A stretch of 24,598 nt of DNA from the IMG/VR virus record IMGVR_UViG_3300025267_000112, positions 1 through 24,598 of that record; one strand, written 5' to 3'. This DNA comes from a virus (Duplodnaviria; Caudoviricetes). Under the pieces are notes generated by a model. That model was not told the origin of the DNA. It saw only the letters and a program-made list of their open reading frames with translations, and did no database searches. The translations under genes and the position numbers were made by a program. Shown here piece by piece: positions 2,619-24,598 of this stretch. The number at the start of each line of letters is the position of its first letter. The first letter of the stretch is position 1.

Positions 2619-5102
2619 TTGCTTGATGATATTGAAGAATCAGCATCTGTAGCCATCGATCTCGACGCTCCCGTACCAGGTCGGTCGGATGAGGAGCGGC
2701 CAGAGATAGAAATCCGGTTAAGCAAGACCGAGCGGGAGAAGATTGCCCGCATGGTCATTGCTGATGCCAAGGCTGGCATGGAAGCCAGGTCCGACTGGTT
2801 ATCGAAACGCCGTGACGCGATCAAGCGTCTGGAGATGGAAACCGAGTCCAAGACCTGGCCCTGGGAGGGCGCATCCAACATAAAGCTCCCTGCCGTTGCC
2901 GTTGCTTCGTTTGCCACCGCCGCCCGTTACATGGCTTCAATCTTCGGTGTCTCCCAGATCATGGACGTGACGGCGGTTGGATCTGATGACATTTCGAGAA
3001 TTCCTGCCGCCCGCCAGTTTGTTGAATGGCTTGTTACCGATGACCGCTTGAATCTCTACGAAAAACTCGATGAGTTCGCCGCCGCAATTCCCCCAAGGGG
3101 AGATTACGCGGCGCATGTTTACTGGAAACGCCAGGTTCGAAACATCCCGAGCGTCATTACAGACCTGGATGGAAATGAATTCATTGAAAAGCAGGAAGAG
3201 GTTATCTTTGAGGGCGCATGGGTTGACATGATTGACACGGAAAATGTCATCCTTCCCTCGGACGCAACGGGGGTTCAGGCGGGAGAGGCTGACTGGGTCA
3301 TTCTTCAGGTCTGGTTGCCCTTCGATGCCATCGCCAGACGGTACAAGACCGGCGCATACAATGTCATGACCCGCAAGGATTTCGAGAGTGTCAAGCAATT
3401 CGAGAAGCGGGATGATAGCTCGTCTCCGACCGAAACGAAAGAGGAACAGGATTCAAGCGAGGGTGTCATCTCCACTCCGGGCCGCAACAAGCGAAGAGCC
3501 TACAAGTGGCACGGGGCTTATGACATTGACAAGGACGGATTGCTCGAAGAGGTGGTTTTCACCGTTCACGTCGAGACGGAAACGCTTCTCCAGGCCGCTT
3601 ATCTTGATGAGGTGCATCCGCACGGGAAACGCCCAATCGTCATTGGCAGATATACCCCTCGCCCGCAGTCACCCTATGGAAAAGGTGTGGCTGAATGGAT
3701 CGGCCATCTGGACGACATCACCAATACCCTTCTGAACCAGTTCATCGACAGGGCGACGCTCATCAATGCGATGACCGGGGCTTACGAGTCGGATTCTCTT
3801 GAAGAAGGCCCGATCACACTCGAACTTGGAAAGCTCATCCCGGTTCCCGAAGGTGCAAGAATTACCTTCCCGACACTTCCAGATTATGGCCCCGTGTTCA
3901 GTACGCTTATACAGTTCATCGAGAGAAAGACCGAGACTGTTACCGGGGTGTCTGACGCTTTTCTTGGAAAGCTGAATCCAAGCTCAAGGGCATCCGCCGC
4001 CGAATTCCAGGGAACGCTCGGCGAAGGTGCGATGGGTTTTGAGATCAAGAACAGGCGGTTCCAGTCCGCCGCCAGTGAAATCATCACCATGATGTTTCAG
4101 CTTTACCAGGCATTCATGCCGGACGGATTCGAGATCAAGGTCAATCCCAAACTCGCGCAACAGATTCAACCGGGCCAAGGCCCTGGTGGGCCACCGCAAC
4201 CGGGCCAAGGCCCTGGTGGGCAACCCCAGCCGGGAATGAACCCGCAAGAACAGCAAATGATGATGGCTCTTCAGCAAGGCCAGGGCATGAACGGTCAGGC
4301 GCAGATGGGCATGAGTCCCGAAGAGCAGATGATGGCCGCTACACAACAAGAGCCGGGAGGCGGCGGACCTCCGCTTGCCCCGCAAGCCAAAATGGGCCTT
4401 GGTATTCCGCCCCACCTATCGGGACAGCAACATCCGCTAAATCCATTCAGGGAATTCACCCGCGAGGAGATCAGGGGCCAGTTTGATTTCCGGTTCCTTG
4501 GCGACCCGGTGTCCGGGAACAAGCAACTGAGAATGCAACAGTCAATGCTTCTTTCCCAGAGCCTTCTTCCGGTGCTTGCACAGGTCTATCCACCCGGAGT
4601 GGTCACATATATTCGGTCAATGCTCCATGATTTCAATAGAAAAGACGCAGACGAGATTCTGCCGGATAAGGTAATTCAACTGCTGGAACAGCAAGCCCAG
4701 TCAGCGAGCCAGATGCAGGAACTCCAGGCTCAACTGATGAAGGCCGAGGCACAGTTGGAGCAGGCGAAGGGACAGGCCGAGATCGAAGTGAGCAAGGCCA
4801 ATGTTCAGGACATCATCGCCCGCGCACAGGAGAGGATAGCAAGGATAAGAATGGATCTACAGGCGGGCGTTGCGGATATTCAGCTCAAGTCCCAACAGAT
4901 CAAAAAAGCTGTTGTTGATACGGATGCCGTGGATGTGGCATCTTTCAACGCCCTAAACCAGGCGGGTCGGGAGGAAATGAATGGAACTGCCAATGGAGGG
5001 CCCGCCCCAGTTCCGGGACGACGAGCAGGGGATACAGGCCCGCCACCTGTGGAATATGAAGAGGACACCGGGATGGGAGATTTTGAAGTTCCACCTGAAT
5101 AG
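2619..5102 (+). CDS. Portal protein with long C-terminal coiled coil
   Basis: 827 aa. PWEGASNIKLP N-terminal motif, YTPRPQSPYGKGVAE...NTLLNQFID motif, ETVTGVSDAFLG...SAAE motif, and a Gln/Ala coiled-coil tail as in P22-type portals. The TTG start is uncertain. Confidence 0.9.
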   Translation: MLDDIEESASVAIDLDAPVPGRSDEERPEIEIRLSKTEREKIARMVIADAKAGMEARSDWLSKRRDAIKRLEMETESKTWPWEGASNIKLPAVAVASFATAARYMASIFGVSQIMDVTAVGSDDISRIPAARQFVEWLVTDDRLNLYEKLDEFAAAIPPRGDYAAHVYWKRQVRNIPSVITDLDGNEFIEKQEEVIFEGAWVDMIDTENVILPSDATGVQAGEADWVILQVWLPFDAIARRYKTGAYNVMTRKDFESVKQFEKRDDSSSPTETKEEQDSSEGVISTPGRNKRRAYKWHGAYDIDKDGLLEEVVFTVHVETETLLQAAYLDEVHPHGKRPIVIGRYTPRPQSPYGKGVAEWIGHLDDITNTLLNQFIDRATLINAMTGAYESDSLEEGPITLELGKLIPVPEGARITFPTLPDYGPVFSTLIQFIERKTETVTGVSDAFLGKLNPSSRASAAEFQGTLGEGAMGFEIKNRRFQSAASEIITMMFQLYQAFMPDGFEIKVNPKLAQQIQPGQGPGGPPQPGQGPGGQPQPGMNPQEQQMMMALQQGQGMNGQAQMGMSPEEQMMAATQQEPGGGGPPLAPQAKMGLGIPPHLSGQQHPLNPFREFTREEIRGQFDFRFLGDPVSGNKQLRMQQSMLLSQSLLPVLAQVYPPGVVTYIRSMLHDFNRKDADEILPDKVIQLLEQQAQSASQMQELQAQLMKAEAQLEQAKGQAEIEVSKANVQDIIARAQERIARIRMDLQAGVADIQLKSQQIKKAVVDTDAVDVASFNALNQAGREEMNGTANGGPAPVPGRRAGDTGPPPVEYEEDTGMGDFEVPPE
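3684..3745 (+). repeat. Direct repeat copy 1 (inside the portal gene) of 19147-19208
   Basis: 59/62 identical, ungapped; mismatches at 3710/19173, 3728/19191 and 3731/19194. Confidence 0.97.
4167..4226 (+). repeat. Tandem 30-bp repeat x2 encoding QPGQGPGG(P/Q)P in the portal
   Basis: CAACCGGGCCAAGGCCCTGGTGGGC starts at both 4167 and 4197. Confidence 0.9.
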
Positions 5103-8630: not shown

Positions 8631-9023
8631 ATGAAGCGAAAATTGTTCCTGGCGTTGGCTCTCCTGGCCGCATGGCTGGTATTGCCAACGATTGTATCAG
8701 CCGAGTGGACGTGCTTTTACCCGCCCGGAACCGGAACCGTCTGCTTCGGAAAATCGGTAGACTCAACTCCGATCCCGTACAAGATGGTCGAGGTGCCCCG
8801 TGCTGGGTCGAACAACTCTGGACTTGGTAGCGGAACGTATGATCGCTACTATTTCTGGCTCGGCCAAACACCCCCGCTGAACGGGGTCTTGCTTGTATCG
8901 CATCACGCAACGGTGGAATCTGGACTGGGTGCGGACGCGATCCGGCAAGGAAATGTGACGCTGGATGATTCCAAGGGAGTGGCGTGCATAACGGCTCAAG
9001 GGTGCCCGAACGATATTCCATAG
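8631..9023 (+). CDS. Exported protein with Sec signal peptide and 4 Cys (130 aa)
   Basis: TAAGGAGAGA Shine-Dalgarno. MKRK n-region, LFLALALLAAWLVL h-region and V-S-A cleavage site; the mature part is beta-rich. Confidence 0.78.
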   Translation: MKRKLFLALALLAAWLVLPTIVSAEWTCFYPPGTGTVCFGKSVDSTPIPYKMVEVPRAGSNNSGLGSGTYDRYYFWLGQTPPLNGVLLVSHHATVESGLGADAIRQGNVTLDDSKGVACITAQGCPNDIP

Positions 9024-10264
9024 TCAGCTATCTTTTGCATACGACAAAAGATGCGTGGACTTGTGTGGTTGTCGGGATACTCCTTATAGGGGTTCACTTC
9101 CTGGTCTGGTGGGGAGTCCTGCCGCAAGAAGGCAGGACTCCCCAGGAATCAGTTGGACTAATTACCTTTCTTGGCGTAAGGGGGCCAAGAGAGGTGTGGA
9201 CGCTCACACTCATTCTGGTGGGATTTGGAGCATGGGTTGCGACAAAAAGTCTGTGGGCGGGTGCGCTGATCGCATGGATATCACTCATGTCAGCCTACCA
9301 GATCCTATGGGTCGGTCGCCCGTTCGTTTTTATCTTCTACGATACATTCTACGCAGTAGCACTGATATCCTTCTTCGTGTTTTCAAAAAGACTCCATGCA
9401 GAGATGATGGCAAGGGTTCTTCTGTTCATCGCGCTTATCAACGTGTTTTGGCTTCCACTGCAACACTGGGAAATTGACCCGATATGGCATCAGATTCGAC
9501 CGGAAGAACTGAAACACAACTGGAGGTTCACGGGTTGGCTGGACAACAACACGAATCTTGTTCACTACCTGGCGATGACAATTCCGCTTGCATCGGTTCT
9601 GTCATGGTGGCTGGTGATCCCGCTGGCGATCCCGGTCCTGTTGGCTACAAAGACCCTTCCGATAGTGGCTGGAATCATCGGCGTGATCGTTGCGAAGCGT
9701 TGGTGGGCGAAGAGGTTTCGCCCAATAGTTCTCGCCCTGTTCGGACTCGCGGCTCTTTACATCGGGATACTGGACCCCCCGAGGTTCTCTGGGGACGGAG
9801 TGCGTTTGGCAGTCTTCAGGGATTCCCTGAAAGTTCAGGCGCAGTGCCCAAACGGTTTGGTTTTCGGGTGTGGGCCGGGAAGTTTCAAGCAGGTCTTCGT
9901 CCGGTGGTTGATCAAAACCGACCACAATCTCGGAACGGCATCAGTTCGGAATCGACAAACAGGGAAACACGTTCAGCAGAAGAGGTTCCCTACCCATACG
10001 GAAATATACCATCACCCATCCAGTGAACTGCTGAAAGCCGTATTTGAACTGGGGTGGCCGGTTCTATTTATCATAACTGGATGGCTCATGTGGATGTGCC
10101 GGAAGATTGCCAGAAAGAAGTCGGAGAAATGGACAAATGCTTACATGGGAGCCTCGGTGGTTTTCATGGTCACAATGCTCGGGTATCAACCGTTTGCGGT
10201 GGCTCCGCTGGCGGTATCGGGTTTAATGGTTCTTGGAATTCTCGAAGGGAGGATTGGTAAATGA
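8984..10264 (+). CDS. O-antigen ligase / O-oligosaccharyltransferase-like polytopic membrane protein (Wzy_C/WaaL-like)
   Basis: Roughly 10-12 hydrophobic segments with ordered family motifs LQ, GWLDNNTN, RLAVFRDSL, FGCGPGSF and HHPSSELLKAVFELG. Start uncertain (GTG 8984 or 9002). Confidence 0.78.
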   Translation: MHNGSRVPERYSIVSYLLHTTKDAWTCVVVGILLIGVHFLVWWGVLPQEGRTPQESVGLITFLGVRGPREVWTLTLILVGFGAWVATKSLWAGALIAWISLMSAYQILWVGRPFVFIFYDTFYAVALISFFVFSKRLHAEMMARVLLFIALINVFWLPLQHWEIDPIWHQIRPEELKHNWRFTGWLDNNTNLVHYLAMTIPLASVLSWWLVIPLAIPVLLATKTLPIVAGIIGVIVAKRWWAKRFRPIVLALFGLAALYIGILDPPRFSGDGVRLAVFRDSLKVQAQCPNGLVFGCGPGSFKQVFVRWLIKTDHNLGTASVRNRQTGKHVQQKRFPTHTEIYHHPSSELLKAVFELGWPVLFIITGWLMWMCRKIARKKSEKWTNAYMGASVVFMVTMLGYQPFAVAPLAVSGLMVLGILEGRIGK

Positions 10265-17330: not shown

Positions 17331-17450
17331 ATGGATGAGGATGATTTGCCTTGGGTTGGCGACGATATGCTGACGAAGCACAGACACCTTGTGTATAAAT
17401 GGGATGGCAAGAAGATCAGGGAAGACAAGAAAAAGATTCCAGACAGATGA
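17331..17450 (+). CDS. 39-aa ORF paralogous to the C-terminus of 17022-17321 (mini-gene or remnant)
   Basis: MDEDDLPWVGDDMLTKHRHLVYKWDGKKIREDKKKIPDR; 19/38 ungapped identities; ATGA overlap with the next gene. Not in the ORF track. Confidence 0.6.
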   Translation: MDEDDLPWVGDDMLTKHRHLVYKWDGKKIREDKKKIPDR

Positions 17451-17830
17451 GCGAGAATTCGGTGGCCGATGAAAGAACAGATGAGAAGTATGAGTCTGGA
17501 CTTGAGAGGATTTATTCGCGTCTCGGCTTCATAGAACAGGTATGCCCTATTTGTTTTGTTAATGGCCGTGAAGGAATCATGGGGTTCAGGTATTCCATCG
17601 TTCAGCAGGAACCCGTTTGTGACAACATTTTGCTTAAATGCAAAACCTGTAAGCACATTGTGATGTTTGGTATTCCAATGATTTCGGCAGAATTGGAGCA
17701 TGAAATTTCGGAGCGCAATGGGACTTGGTTCACTCCGCACTGGAAAAATGGGAGTGACCCTGATGCCATTCAGTTGGAACGTCTCGTCGCTCTTGGTTAC
17801 GCGGAATACGAATACAGGAGAACCAAATAA
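17447..17830 (+). CDS. Zn-ribbon-like protein (CPIC / CKTC)
   Basis: ATG at 17447; two CxxC pairs; TAATG coupling to the next gene. Confidence 0.68.
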   Translation: MSENSVADERTDEKYESGLERIYSRLGFIEQVCPICFVNGREGIMGFRYSIVQQEPVCDNILLKCKTCKHIVMFGIPMISAELEHEISERNGTWFTPHWKNGSDPDAIQLERLVALGYAEYEYRRTK

Positions 17831-19146
17831 TGGGTGCGGCGGCAGCGGCTTGGGCAGGAGTAGGACTGGCGGCGATAGGTACGGGGAAAAGCCTCGCCAG
17901 CTCACCGGGTGGGGGCGGCGGGGGAAGAGGCGGGCAAGGCCCGCCTCCAGTCCCGGGATTTGGAGAAGGCCCGTTTTGGGGCGGCTTTCAGAGGGAGCAA
18001 CTTTCGGGTCTGCCCAGTGCCGCCACAAGACAAAGGGAACTAGATTTTGGCCGAGCGGATTTTGGTGGGGAAGCACTGGGCTCCATGCGGGGAGCGTTGC
18101 CGGGATTCATGCCCGCCCCCGGTGAGGATGTTTTCCGAGGAGATCTGTACGGTGCCGGACGGGATTTAGATGCATTCGAAAGGGCGCGTGATGCCTTCGG
18201 AGCAAGTATTGATCGGTATGGTGCGCTTGGCGGGAGGGCACTTGGCACAGAAATGATTGCTCGCCCCTTGGTGGAACAAGGTCTTGCCACCCCATTTGCT
18301 CTCGGACCACAAACAGAGGGTCTCTTTGATCAACGAGCCGCTGGGCGTAGAAACCTTTTACTGGCTGAACAGGCAAGGGCCGCCGCCGGATTGCGGGAAA
18401 GACTTGCTGGGCGTTTCGGGCCGGGATACCAGTCAGGGACTCCATTCCTCGCAGGAGAAGAAGAATATGTCACGCGGCCCTATGCTCAAGGGCTTACACA
18501 GCTAGGTATTAGCGACATCGAACAACGTCTCGGGGCGGCGAGGTGGCAAAGGGGATATGAACGAGATGTCCTCGGTGATGCGGTCAGAGCGCAATTACAG
18601 GCTGGTCAATATGGTGACGTTGCGGCCCGCGAGCTACAGAGAGGCGGACTGGACATGGCGACGTTGCGTTCCGAAGACGCCCGCGCAAGGATGGCATACC
18701 TCCAGAGGGTTCAAACTGAAACACCTAACCTCATGGGGGCTCCCCTGGATGCGTTGAAGGCCGTAAGAACCATTCAGGGCGGCCCAGGGGGTGGTGGAGG
18801 CCCAACATTCCCGACACAAACAGGTGGCTCTGACTGGGGGAGTGATCTCATGGGTCTTGGCGGAACTGTCGTCGGGGAGGCTCTCAGGTCAAAAAGACAT
18901 GAAGATTGGCTGAAGAGGCAGTATCCGACCGGACAAGATCCTTCCGCTCCTGAGTGGGAAAGCCCGTGGGATGGAGATCCGTGGGCGGGTTCAAACCTCC
19001 CCGATTCCGGCTGGGGAGGTGCGCCGAATCCTATGGATTATAGAGATGAAAGTGGTTTCGGCACCCCTGACTACGGTGGGCCTGTCGACACCTACAGTCC
19101 TCTGGCTGGCGGGTCACTTTATGGCAGAACGGGACCGTATTGGTAG
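17830..19146 (+). CDS. Putative ejection/internal virion protein 1
   Basis: Hydrophobic Gly/Ala N-terminus MGAAAAAWAGVGLAAIG, helical Ala/Arg/Gln core and Gly-rich C-terminus; position after the tail genes. Confidence 0.62.
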   Translation: MGAAAAAWAGVGLAAIGTGKSLASSPGGGGGGRGGQGPPPVPGFGEGPFWGGFQREQLSGLPSAATRQRELDFGRADFGGEALGSMRGALPGFMPAPGEDVFRGDLYGAGRDLDAFERARDAFGASIDRYGALGGRALGTEMIARPLVEQGLATPFALGPQTEGLFDQRAAGRRNLLLAEQARAAAGLRERLAGRFGPGYQSGTPFLAGEEEYVTRPYAQGLTQLGISDIEQRLGAARWQRGYERDVLGDAVRAQLQAGQYGDVAARELQRGGLDMATLRSEDARARMAYLQRVQTETPNLMGAPLDALKAVRTIQGGPGGGGGPTFPTQTGGSDWGSDLMGLGGTVVGEALRSKRHEDWLKRQYPTGQDPSAPEWESPWDGDPWAGSNLPDSGWGGAPNPMDYRDESGFGTPDYGGPVDTYSPLAGGSLYGRTGPYW

Positions 19147-19208
19147 GGTGTGGCTGAATGGATCGGCCATCTTGACGACATCACCAATACTCTCCTGAAC
19201 CAGTTCAT
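19147..19208 (+). repeat. Direct repeat copy 2: portal gene fragment in an intergenic space
   Basis: 59/62 identity to 3684-3745; starts at the first base after the TAG stop at 19144-19146. Confidence 0.97.
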
Positions 19209-19239
19209 AGAACCAGGATCTTATTACGACGCGCTTTAA
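19150..19239 (+). CDS. Possible 29-aa portal-derived peptide (or readthrough extension of 17830-19146)
   Basis: GTG...TAA gives MAEWIGHLDDITNTLLNQFIEPGSYYDAL, in the same frame as the upstream gene. There is no strong Shine-Dalgarno, so translation is unproven. Confidence 0.3.
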   Translation: MAEWIGHLDDITNTLLNQFIEPGSYYDAL

Positions 19240-19315
19240 ACCATAGTGGCTTCGGTACTCAGGACAGTAATTAAGAATGATAAGAATGAAATCCCAGCAA
19301 CGGGAGAAACCATAA

Positions 19316-21430
19316 ATGCCTTACCATGATCGACGCAGGCCACCCCAGTTCTCCGGCATTGGAGGCGGCCTTCGGCTATTTGCCCAAAACCTTCTCGCGC
19401 CGCTGGCAGAGCAAAGAGCCCTTGAATCAGATCTTATGAAGAGCAAGATTCTTAATCGGGCGGCAGAAGACAGGCAAATTAGGGCGGAAAAGAGACGGGC
19501 GGCCCAAGCCAAAACGGTAGAGGACAGCCGACGCCTATGGGAAGAGGCTCGAACGCGCGACGCCCGAATGCAAGCACAGATAACGTGGGAGCTGCGGAAA
19601 AGACGAGAAGATGAACTGGAGCAGGCCAGACTTGATAGACCCGCCTCGCGAGAAGCGTATGATATAAAACTCCGGGCCTATGGTAGAGATCCAAGAACCC
19701 TTGATCAACCTGGTATGGAAGGTTCTTTTGGTCCTGGAAGCGGGGCTCCTTCGTGGCCGTCAATTGGTGCTATAGAACGGGCACCGAAACATGAATCATT
19801 CAGGAAGTCATTGCCTCTCGGGACAGACCCCGTCAAACCACCAGCCAAGATAGCGGTTGCACGAGAGGTGTCCCGTCTTAGAATACAATTGGAAGCAACC
19901 AAGGTTCCAGAAAATCTATGGCCTACAGATCCCCGAACGAGAGATATGTACAATCAATTGGTATATTTGACACGTGGGGATCGCGAGGGTTCAACCATCT
20001 TCGAAAGACTTCAGCGTAAAGGACCGCCAACGGCATGGGGGACGGGACGAACACCCGCGGAACAGAGGCATTTCCTAAACCTGTCGGGTCTGACCCCAAT
20101 ACACACAGCCATTTACCGTAAGAATAAGGACGGATCTTACACGGCAGGGTCTGGAGTTATCAGGGGGGGTCGCTTATTTGAATACAGAGAAAATCCGAAG
20201 ACAGGAGGTTACCTGAAAAACCCAGATGGAACTGAAAAGCTCTTCCGGGCACCACCGGGAAGCTATCCGGTTACGGACCCAAAAATGGGTATGACTGCCC
20301 AGGAGGCGCGATATCGCAAGAGGCAGCTTGGAATTATGATTTCACGGATGTCGGGGGGGGCGACAAATATCGAGGAACTGGAAAAGAGGGGATTTGTCGG
20401 AAATATATTCCAGCCATCCAAGGGTATGCCACATAGGTTTGAATTAACGCCAAGGGCCCAGAAATTTCTTGATCAGGCCGGATCGGGTGGGACTGCCATC
20501 ACACTAGCCCGAGCCATTAAGGAAGCGGCACTGAAACAGCCTGCCATTCTTGGTCAGGCAGGAGCACTCTCATCTCTTGCCCAGCGGTTCACATCTCATA
20601 CCAAACAATTGCTGAGAAAATTCCGCACTATTCCGTTAATGGGAAAATTTGTGGCTGAAAACCCTGGAGGCGTGGGAGGGTTTGAAGAGCGAGGTATTCT
20701 TTCGTGGACGAAGGGCAAGGATGGAATGGTTCTGGAAGCAACGCTAAAAGACGGAAAATGGACAAACGAGTGGGTGAAAGCCGAGAACGCCAAGGATATC
20801 GGCAATTGGGAGAGGGGCCAAGACCATTCAACGGTAATAAATAATACCTTCACACGAATCGAGAAGTCCCACGTATGGCAAACGATGATGGCTGGCGGGG
20901 TATCAAGGGAGACTGTTAAATCCACGATTTTCGGTCTGGCTCTTCATGTATTAGCCGCAAGGGGTATCAAGGGAAGCCGAATCAGCACGAAACTGTTAAA
21001 TCTAACCATTACTGAAATTGCCGGAGTAACCGATAGTGTTGAGACGTTCGTAGCAAAACTGGATAACCTTGAACGTCGCCTGATTCAGCCAGTGGTAAAA
21101 TCTTCCCTGTCTATTTTCATGCAACCCTTTCATCCCATGAACATCTATGCTGGGATGGGCATAAGACCCGATCGAAGAATCGCGGCAACAATCGCGCACG
21201 AATCGACATACTTCAACACGGAAAATGGTGAGCTTGAAAGAGGTAAAACACCCCAGACACCGGGAGCCGCCGCCGGGAGCGGGAAACCGAAAGTACGTCC
21301 CCGCGAAACAAGGGTGATGGTCTATGATGAAACGAAAAAGGCAAGCAGATACGAAACCGAAGAGGAAAGGTTGGAAAGGGAACGAACAGACGCGGGGCTT
21401 CCAGAATGGACCTCCCCGATGGGCTTTTGA
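19316..21430 (+). CDS. Putative ejection/internal virion protein 2 (704 aa)
   Basis: GGGAGA Shine-Dalgarno; FSGIGGGLRLFAQ amphipathic start followed by a long coiled coil; assigned by synteny only. Confidence 0.55.
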   Translation: MPYHDRRRPPQFSGIGGGLRLFAQNLLAPLAEQRALESDLMKSKILNRAAEDRQIRAEKRRAAQAKTVEDSRRLWEEARTRDARMQAQITWELRKRREDELEQARLDRPASREAYDIKLRAYGRDPRTLDQPGMEGSFGPGSGAPSWPSIGAIERAPKHESFRKSLPLGTDPVKPPAKIAVAREVSRLRIQLEATKVPENLWPTDPRTRDMYNQLVYLTRGDREGSTIFERLQRKGPPTAWGTGRTPAEQRHFLNLSGLTPIHTAIYRKNKDGSYTAGSGVIRGGRLFEYRENPKTGGYLKNPDGTEKLFRAPPGSYPVTDPKMGMTAQEARYRKRQLGIMISRMSGGATNIEELEKRGFVGNIFQPSKGMPHRFELTPRAQKFLDQAGSGGTAITLARAIKEAALKQPAILGQAGALSSLAQRFTSHTKQLLRKFRTIPLMGKFVAENPGGVGGFEERGILSWTKGKDGMVLEATLKDGKWTNEWVKAENAKDIGNWERGQDHSTVINNTFTRIEKSHVWQTMMAGGVSRETVKSTIFGLALHVLAARGIKGSRISTKLLNLTITEIAGVTDSVETFVAKLDNLERRLIQPVVKSSLSIFMQPFHPMNIYAGMGIRPDRRIAATIAHESTYFNTENGELERGKTPQTPGAAAGSGKPKVRPRETRVMVYDETKKASRYETEEERLERERTDAGLPEWTSPMGF

Positions 21431-24011: not shown

Positions 24012-24598
24012 ATGAACCGCCATATGTTCACAGCCCTGATTGTTTTCACCCTCATATGGTGGGGGCCGGGTTTACTTGCACCGCATCGATTTGATACGGC
24101 CCACATGATTACGTTCATTCTGGTGGGATGCTTGTGGCTGGCCTGGAAACTGGGACAACGCGAGAAATGGCTTGGCTGGACATACACGGCCCTGATTATC
24201 GGAACAGGAGTAAACCTGTTCACAAACCGAACGGTCTTGCTGAAGGGCATGCGCGATGGTGCTGTACGTGCTGACATCACACTCGTCCCGCTACTTGGTT
24301 GTCTTTCCATCGGCGCGGCGGTCTGTATCTTCTTGTGGGCGGCGAATCTGAGTGCCTCAGACTCGCGCTTCCTGGCGAAATCCATTGCTTTTGTTGGGGC
24401 CATCAGCGGGGTATTGGGGATTATCCAACTATACAGCGGTGATTTTATGGGCATATACGGCGTGAATCCGGTCAAGGACGTGGGCGCATCCGTCGGATTG
24501 TGGGGAAATCCGGGCCTTCAGGGCATCACCCTCGCCCTGACCCTCCCCCTGGCCCTGTTCGCGCTCCCGTGGGCTTCGATACCAATAATGGCGGGACT
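24012..24598 (+). CDS. Second O-antigen ligase-like membrane protein (3' partial)
   Basis: Open from ATG 24012 to the window end and absent from the ORF track. Several hydrophobic segments, then GIIQ and SVGLWGNPG...LALTLPLAL, parallel to LPLQ...FTGWLDNNT...LAMTIPLA in 8984-10264. Confidence 0.68.
   Translation, partial: MNRHMFTALIVFTLIWWGPGLLAPHRFDTAHMITFILVGCLWLAWKLGQREKWLGWTYTALIIGTGVNLFTNRTVLLKGMRDGAVRADITLVPLLGCLSIGAAVCIFLWAANLSASDSRFLAKSIAFVGAISGVLGIIQLYSGDFMGIYGVNPVKDVGASVGLWGNPGLQGITLALTLPLALFALPWASIPIMAG

Follow-up and report, generated by a model that had tools for sequence, protein, structure and literature searches.

A synonymously diverged portal fragment behind the stop codon of a likely phage ejection gene, best read as a recombination scar

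How does a piece of a portal gene come to lie, in frame, directly behind the stop codon of a likely ejection gene? The question is raised by a 24,598-nt stretch of viral DNA, here called the window, which is part of a podophage-like marine genome that encodes a portal of the SU10/N4-like kind, a capsid and an adaptor. When the window was aligned to itself, 59 of the 62 nucleotides of the copy (Table 1) were identical to the portal gene. The three mismatches, at portal positions 3710 (G/T), 3728 (C/T) and 3731 (T/C), give the codon pairs CTG/CTT, ACC/ACT and CTT/CTC, all of them synonymous third positions, and the base directly after the copy makes ATC/ATA against the portal. The copy starts on the codon boundary right behind the TAG, in the frame of the upstream ORF, and this frame encodes GVAEWIGHLDDITNTLLNQFI-EPGSYYDAL-stop, in which the portal part corresponds to residues 356-376. 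It stays open for 30 codons and closes at TAA 19237-19239. The match, the synonymy and the in-frame position had all been claimed in a sequence-only reading of the window, and each proved exact when recomputed. That first reading had missed that the likeness to the portal extends 12 nt upstream of the copy, on the same diagonal and through the stop codon. In a self-blastn of the window, the copy and the portal pair with E=3e-22 and are the sole dispersed same-strand repeat at E<=1. An inverted repeat around the stop (19132-19144/19183-19195) was set aside because the region folds no better than shuffles.

Table 1. Coordinates in the window of the features discussed in the text.
Feature	Position	Strand	Basis or remark
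Portal gene, SU10/N4-like, 827 aa	2619..5102	+	PF23899, phrog_1216, solved portals
Portal codons 356-376, helix after the SPYGKG motif	3684..3745	+	Homology, low-confidence model
Likely first ejection gene, P22 gp7/T7 gp14-like, 438 aa	17830..19146	+	Atlas lead, gene order
Left junction, P-Y-W-stop on the portal's P-Y-G-K diagonal	19135..19146	+	Inferred microhomology
Portal copy, 62 nt	19147..19208	+	3 synonymous differences to own portal; 6 to L030-L033; 8 to L028 (of 62)
Likely relic: older ejection-gene 3' end(s), now orphaned	19207..19274	+	IEPGSYYDAL-stop, then SGFGTxD motif
Small hairpin and Shine-Dalgarno-like block, mosaic boundary	19291..19323	+	Common to relatives with other DNA upstream

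The window is of metagenomic-assembly origin, and a chimeric assembly was therefore considered. When the proposed check for sequence spanning the junctions was run on contigs, both junctions were crossed in 6 of 8 sequencing runs, which come from five studies dated 2016-2024, and the longest identical run shared by the copy and the window's own portal is 26 bases. A chimera is therefore very unlikely, to the point of being negligible. Over the junction contigs, four runs (X14, X15, X17 and X19) have no differences to the window, X16 has one and X18 has three; the last belong to a variant, contig 15, which covers 19039-19337 and so spans the fragment. In the two other runs, the X20 contigs have a gap at the locus and no X21 contig was placed. 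All this evidence consists of assembled contigs, raw reads not included, and no run is flagged as a possible source of the window. The copy also stands unchanged in the JGI/IMG-VR records L021 and L022, which may share the window's own campaign. Throughout the 2016-2024 contigs, one recombinant background included, the copy carries no indel and no amino-acid change, which speaks against a neutral scar, although its flanks are equally invariant.

The label of the copied gene as a portal is backed by PF23899 (E=2.5e-14), by assignment to phrog_1216 in a PHROG search and by profile matches to solved portals, e.g., 9lbz (E=3e-25). The copied stretch follows the SPYGKG motif, where it aligns with the corresponding region of solved portals, and its peptide is identical in the two closest portal relatives. 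It had been described as the helix after this motif, probably a stem helix. The alignment to solved portals agrees with the position, and the stretch is helical in an AlphaFold model of low confidence (pLDDT 35.5); the name stem helix comes from homology, and we keep it as an assumption. Elsewhere in the portal gene, a 30-nt tandem duplication at 4167-4226 lies in a Q/P/G-rich insertion that is variable among relatives.

The gene in front of the copy is the first of three large genes behind the tail genes. An ejection protein is its likely product because of this gene order and an Atlas lead, a cluster with 13% P22_gp7, and the earlier label is kept in this qualified form. The protein has no match in Pfam or PHROG. 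Thirteen related proteins, nine close and four distant, share its core, which is conserved to about residue 320; beyond this point the tail differs among relatives, and the tails of the close relatives are unalike. None of the 13 related proteins contains a portal-like stretch, the best match reaching 6/21 identities. A region search, a weak test with nine candidates, returned only the window's own protein, and neither the fragment nor the ejection-like protein has a match among INPHARED phages.

Conservation of the fragment at this locus had been suggested as a check, and the fragment did not turn out to be conserved. The gap behind the ejection-like gene is 169 nt long, the largest of 22 in the operon. 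One relative, known from three assemblies (L023-L025), has DNA over the whole gap, and there the stop is followed by 60 nt and the next gene, without the portal piece. In two further relatives, loose ends of 26-30 letters in X15 and X18, the block in common with the window begins at 19261 and 19275 and is preceded by other DNA; by eye, two of the three frames in these loose ends close 45-53 nt before the next start. IMG/VR scans gave near-identical sisters only. A GTDB scan gave 11 distant portal loci at 21-38% identity. In these 11 and five relative loci, most of them too short to include the ejection module, no comparable portal-fragment repeat was found at E<=1e-4; other repeats are present in 2 of the 16.

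The nature of the three differences speaks to the source of the piece. The window's own portal is the closest match found, as expected if the phage had duplicated its own gene and the duplicate had then drifted neutrally. However, only 22-28% of random single changes in the copy codons are synonymous, and three synonymous changes out of three have P=0.012-0.021 under neutral drift. Drift after self-copying is therefore unlikely, and we regard self-duplication in this phage as highly improbable. The portals of relatives encode the same peptide in this stretch, with third-position changes only (8 and 7 changes). Two of the three copy alleles are found there among 11 alleles. A donor belonging to the same population would show this pattern, but given the synonymy the shared alleles by themselves carry little weight (P=0.18). 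An exact donor with 0 differences was found neither among the portals collected nor in INPHARED. We read the synonymous-only differences as a legacy of the donor, where purifying selection would have acted on a genuine portal, and not as the result of selection on the copy.

The same differences might instead reflect selection on a translated portal mimic, made either by amber readthrough onto the ejection protein or as a separate 29-aa peptide after reinitiation at GTG 19150. The open frame directly after the TAG would allow this, the all-synonymous differences have P=0.003-0.021 under neutrality, and tight coupling is frequent among the genes of the operon. Such a mimic could be a decoy for the host portal sensors Avs4/Avs11 or a docking tag, or it could inhibit the assembly of portals in rival phages, and the available part of one report describes recognition of portal proteins by Avs sensors (10.64898/2026.01.04.697583). 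However, the fragment is absent in the relative that has DNA here and no sense fusion occurs in the 13 related proteins. The TAG is an ordinary stop that ends 5 of 22 genes, no tRNA gene was found in the 8 loci examined (about half of the genome), six folds are not above shuffles (z -1.15 to 0.91), and the synonymy is accounted for without selection on the copy. Moreover, the Avs sensors, as far as the available part of that report goes, envelop whole folds through extended interfaces and do not read short motifs, and one 21-residue helix is unlikely to mimic such a fold. We therefore consider a translated mimic unlikely, and no positive evidence was found for the readthrough tag or the portal-mimic peptide that the sequence-only reading had offered. 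Highly doubtful in our opinion is the fuller version, in which the captured stem helix would be appended by readthrough to the first-ejected protein and delivered ahead of the DNA as an Avs decoy, a nascent counter-defence.

The copy might also act as nucleic acid: as an RNA, antisense or guide, directed at the portal of a competitor, as a CRISPR decoy, or as a spare template for recoding a targeted stretch of the portal. The site is non-coding, the fragment is a near-copy of a conserved essential gene with wobble-only differences to the phage's own portal, and virus-borne spacers against close relatives exist, according to the part of the source at hand (PMC6858448). However, the self match of 59/62 exceeds those to relatives (56/62 and 54/62), opposite to what mini-arrays have. 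The copy has no flanking repeats and no Rfam family, it lies in the sense orientation, and neither strand of 18900-19500 showed a promoter-like site in a consensus scan. Since its best match is the phage's own portal, the copy suits a guide or antisense role poorly, and a nucleic-acid role as a whole appears quite improbable. Neither is the copy a template of a diversity-generating retroelement (DGR), since the mismatches G/T, C/T and T/C are not adenine-specific; no reverse transcriptase was found among the 24 window ORFs and 11 flanking ORFs scanned.

An inspection of the junctions indicated how the piece could have been joined. Over the 12 nt of the left junction (Table 1), the window is identical to its own portal at 7 positions (P=0.014) and to the portals of L028 and L030 at 8 (P=0.003). 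A relative's portal contig matches the window from 19145 on, and the relatives' portals have AAG at the position of the window's TAG. The stop may have been created at the junction or afterwards by one change. At the right junction, AT.GA is common to the copy flank and the portal (4/5 nt).

The DNA behind the copy suggests, by its sequence motifs, an orphaned older end of the ejection gene. The motif SGFGTxD lies in another frame than IEPGSYYDAL and ends at TAA 19272-19274. Its form SGFGTQD agrees at 6/7 residues with the gene's own SGFGTPD, a likeness that was tested post hoc and is reached by 0/2000 shuffles and 0/587 real segments, and the two repeats differ by third-position changes. IEPG also occurs near the end of the closest relative, P0002, which stands at 91%; in a test that was likewise post hoc, it is reached by 62/20000 shuffles for that tail and by 417/20000 for any of six. 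A 5-aa tail scan matched several relatives at 4/5, and for this reason the exact IEPG test alone was used. The sharing of IEPG may be chance, since apart from it the tail of P0001 is unlike that of P0002, and with the tests being post hoc we take the relic tail and junction tests as supporting and not as decisive. By eye, the X18 loose end has two short blocks in common with 19246-19257.

Immediately downstream, the hairpin and Shine-Dalgarno-like block that mark a further boundary at 19291 are 88% identical to L023-L025 over 33 nt. The minus-strand terminator-like match in this block is a single one and not above shuffles. The hairpin was also considered as a CRISPR repeat and rejected: it is single, contains the ribosome-binding site, is 80 nt away from the copy and has no match in Rfam.

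Similar boundaries lie on both sides of the locus. At 17456, L023 is identical to the window for 123 nt and then unrelated. A 5.2-kb contig of X16 carries the fragment and diverges after 19558, with 4.6 kb unlike the window. The genes neighbouring the copy are swapped wholesale among relatives. The terminase 3' end (window 1 to ~800) shows about 16% divergence from sister records whose identity to the window elsewhere is 99.9%, which is a recent allele swap. The junctions at 17456, 19261-19291 and 19558, together with the terminase swap, indicate that exchange among co-infecting relatives is recent and common. A terminase, a PD-(D/E)XK exonuclease and a RusA resolvase are encoded on a sister record of 39,239 nt, estimated to be 51% complete; within this roughly half genome, no single-strand annealing recombinase was recognized.

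Some other features of these genomes were recorded on the side. The boundary at 17456 falls inside ORF 17399-17830, of which L023 keeps the first 19 codons before continuing into a different 180-aa protein without Pfam or PHROG match, which may be acetyltransferase-like. Several other runs have contigs that stop near 19500-19550. Between terminase and portal, the non-coding DNA holds three long inverted repeats (1090-1214, 1452-1494 and 1492-1552), one of them with 23 perfect pairs. Within the virion gene cluster, 8984-10264 and 24012-24598 encode predicted multi-pass membrane proteins with no Pfam or PHROG match, which may be of the O-antigen-ligase type. Outside the window, the sister record L029 carries three GC-rich palindromes of ~50-90 nt that are nearly identical to one another (1346-1435, 1636-1726 and 2007-2069); they are spaced among short ORFs and resemble regulatory cassettes mediating shuffling. 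Upstream of the terminase, positions 2615-3160 of L029 encode a protein of 181 aa in which a citrate synthase C-terminal domain was detected (PF00285, above cut-off).

Considering all the above, we believe, with a probability of roughly 0.75, that the copy is a non-functional recombination scar, in which microhomology allowed a piece of a relative's portal to be patched into the 3' tail of the likely ejection gene, a hypervariable region. The donor would be the portal of a close relative, either a co-infecting phage or a relative in which the piece had been self-copied and then carried along with the ejection module. With such an origin, the synonymous differences would be inherited. Annealing at codon-phased likeness, P-Y-x-x on the left and AT.GA on the right, would yield the in-frame insertion, and this codon-phased microhomology at both junctions would explain the placement in frame. 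The TAG would have arisen at the left junction or soon after, truncating a dispensable tail of which 19207-19274 would be the remains, and the copy would now be a neutral passenger of the gene. Capture from a relative's portal, or a recombination scar, was among the alternatives of the sequence-only reading and is the best fit; its antisense or guide version fits poorly.

As a scar, the copy is a clean small example of how out-of-place pieces of structural genes originate in wild phage populations. It also calls for caution, as synonymous-only divergence and in-frame position can be inherited from donor and junction with no function needed. Were the fragment translated after all, it would show decoy or mimic peptides starting from such accidents.

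Programmed stop-codon readthrough extends some phage structural proteins. The window is similar to such cases in its frame, which is open directly behind the stop, whereas its putative extension, read from the sequence, is foreign DNA that is not conserved among relatives. The sequence-only reading knew of no described equivalent, and our literature search, with most subscription papers outside its coverage, likewise turned up no account of a piece of portal gene following the stop of an ejection gene. In podophages, ejection genes vary more than the remaining virion genes, according to the available part of one study (PMC8954989), and the wholesale swapping of the window's neighbouring genes agrees with this; the same part of the study describes no portal-derived tag on ejection proteins. 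Virus-borne mini-CRISPR arrays, as presented in the portion of the source at hand (PMC6858448), are likewise intergenic and hold a short copy of a related virus's gene, whereas the window copy is longer, has no repeats, and matches itself best and not a competitor. The block at 19291-19323 resembles the PeSL regulatory cassettes of T4-type phages, as far as these are characterized in the text available (PMC2839356), in being a short conserved stem-loop at a boundary of modular shuffling; unlike them it is single-copy and showed no promoter-like site in the scan, and the likeness concerns the boundary and not the portal piece.

The closest comparison is with phage mosaics, in which exchange involves small pieces of genes more frequently than entire modules (De Paepe et al. 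2014, PMC3945230). In the sections of that work available, mosaics were scored from 100 bp and the minimum homology of Red-beta is given as ~30 bp. The window has in common with these mosaics a short, high-identity, relative-derived segment with weaker, above-background likeness in its flanks. It differs in that the piece is only 62 nt long, has flanks of ~12 and 5 nt and lies 15.5 kb out of place, and these features speak for joining by microhomology or illegitimate recombination and not for allelic exchange. With flanks that fall short of the ~30 bp given for Red-beta, illegitimate joining also fits better than relaxed allelic recombination. The copy is of unusual neatness, yet it is best read as another instance of phage mosaic scarring.
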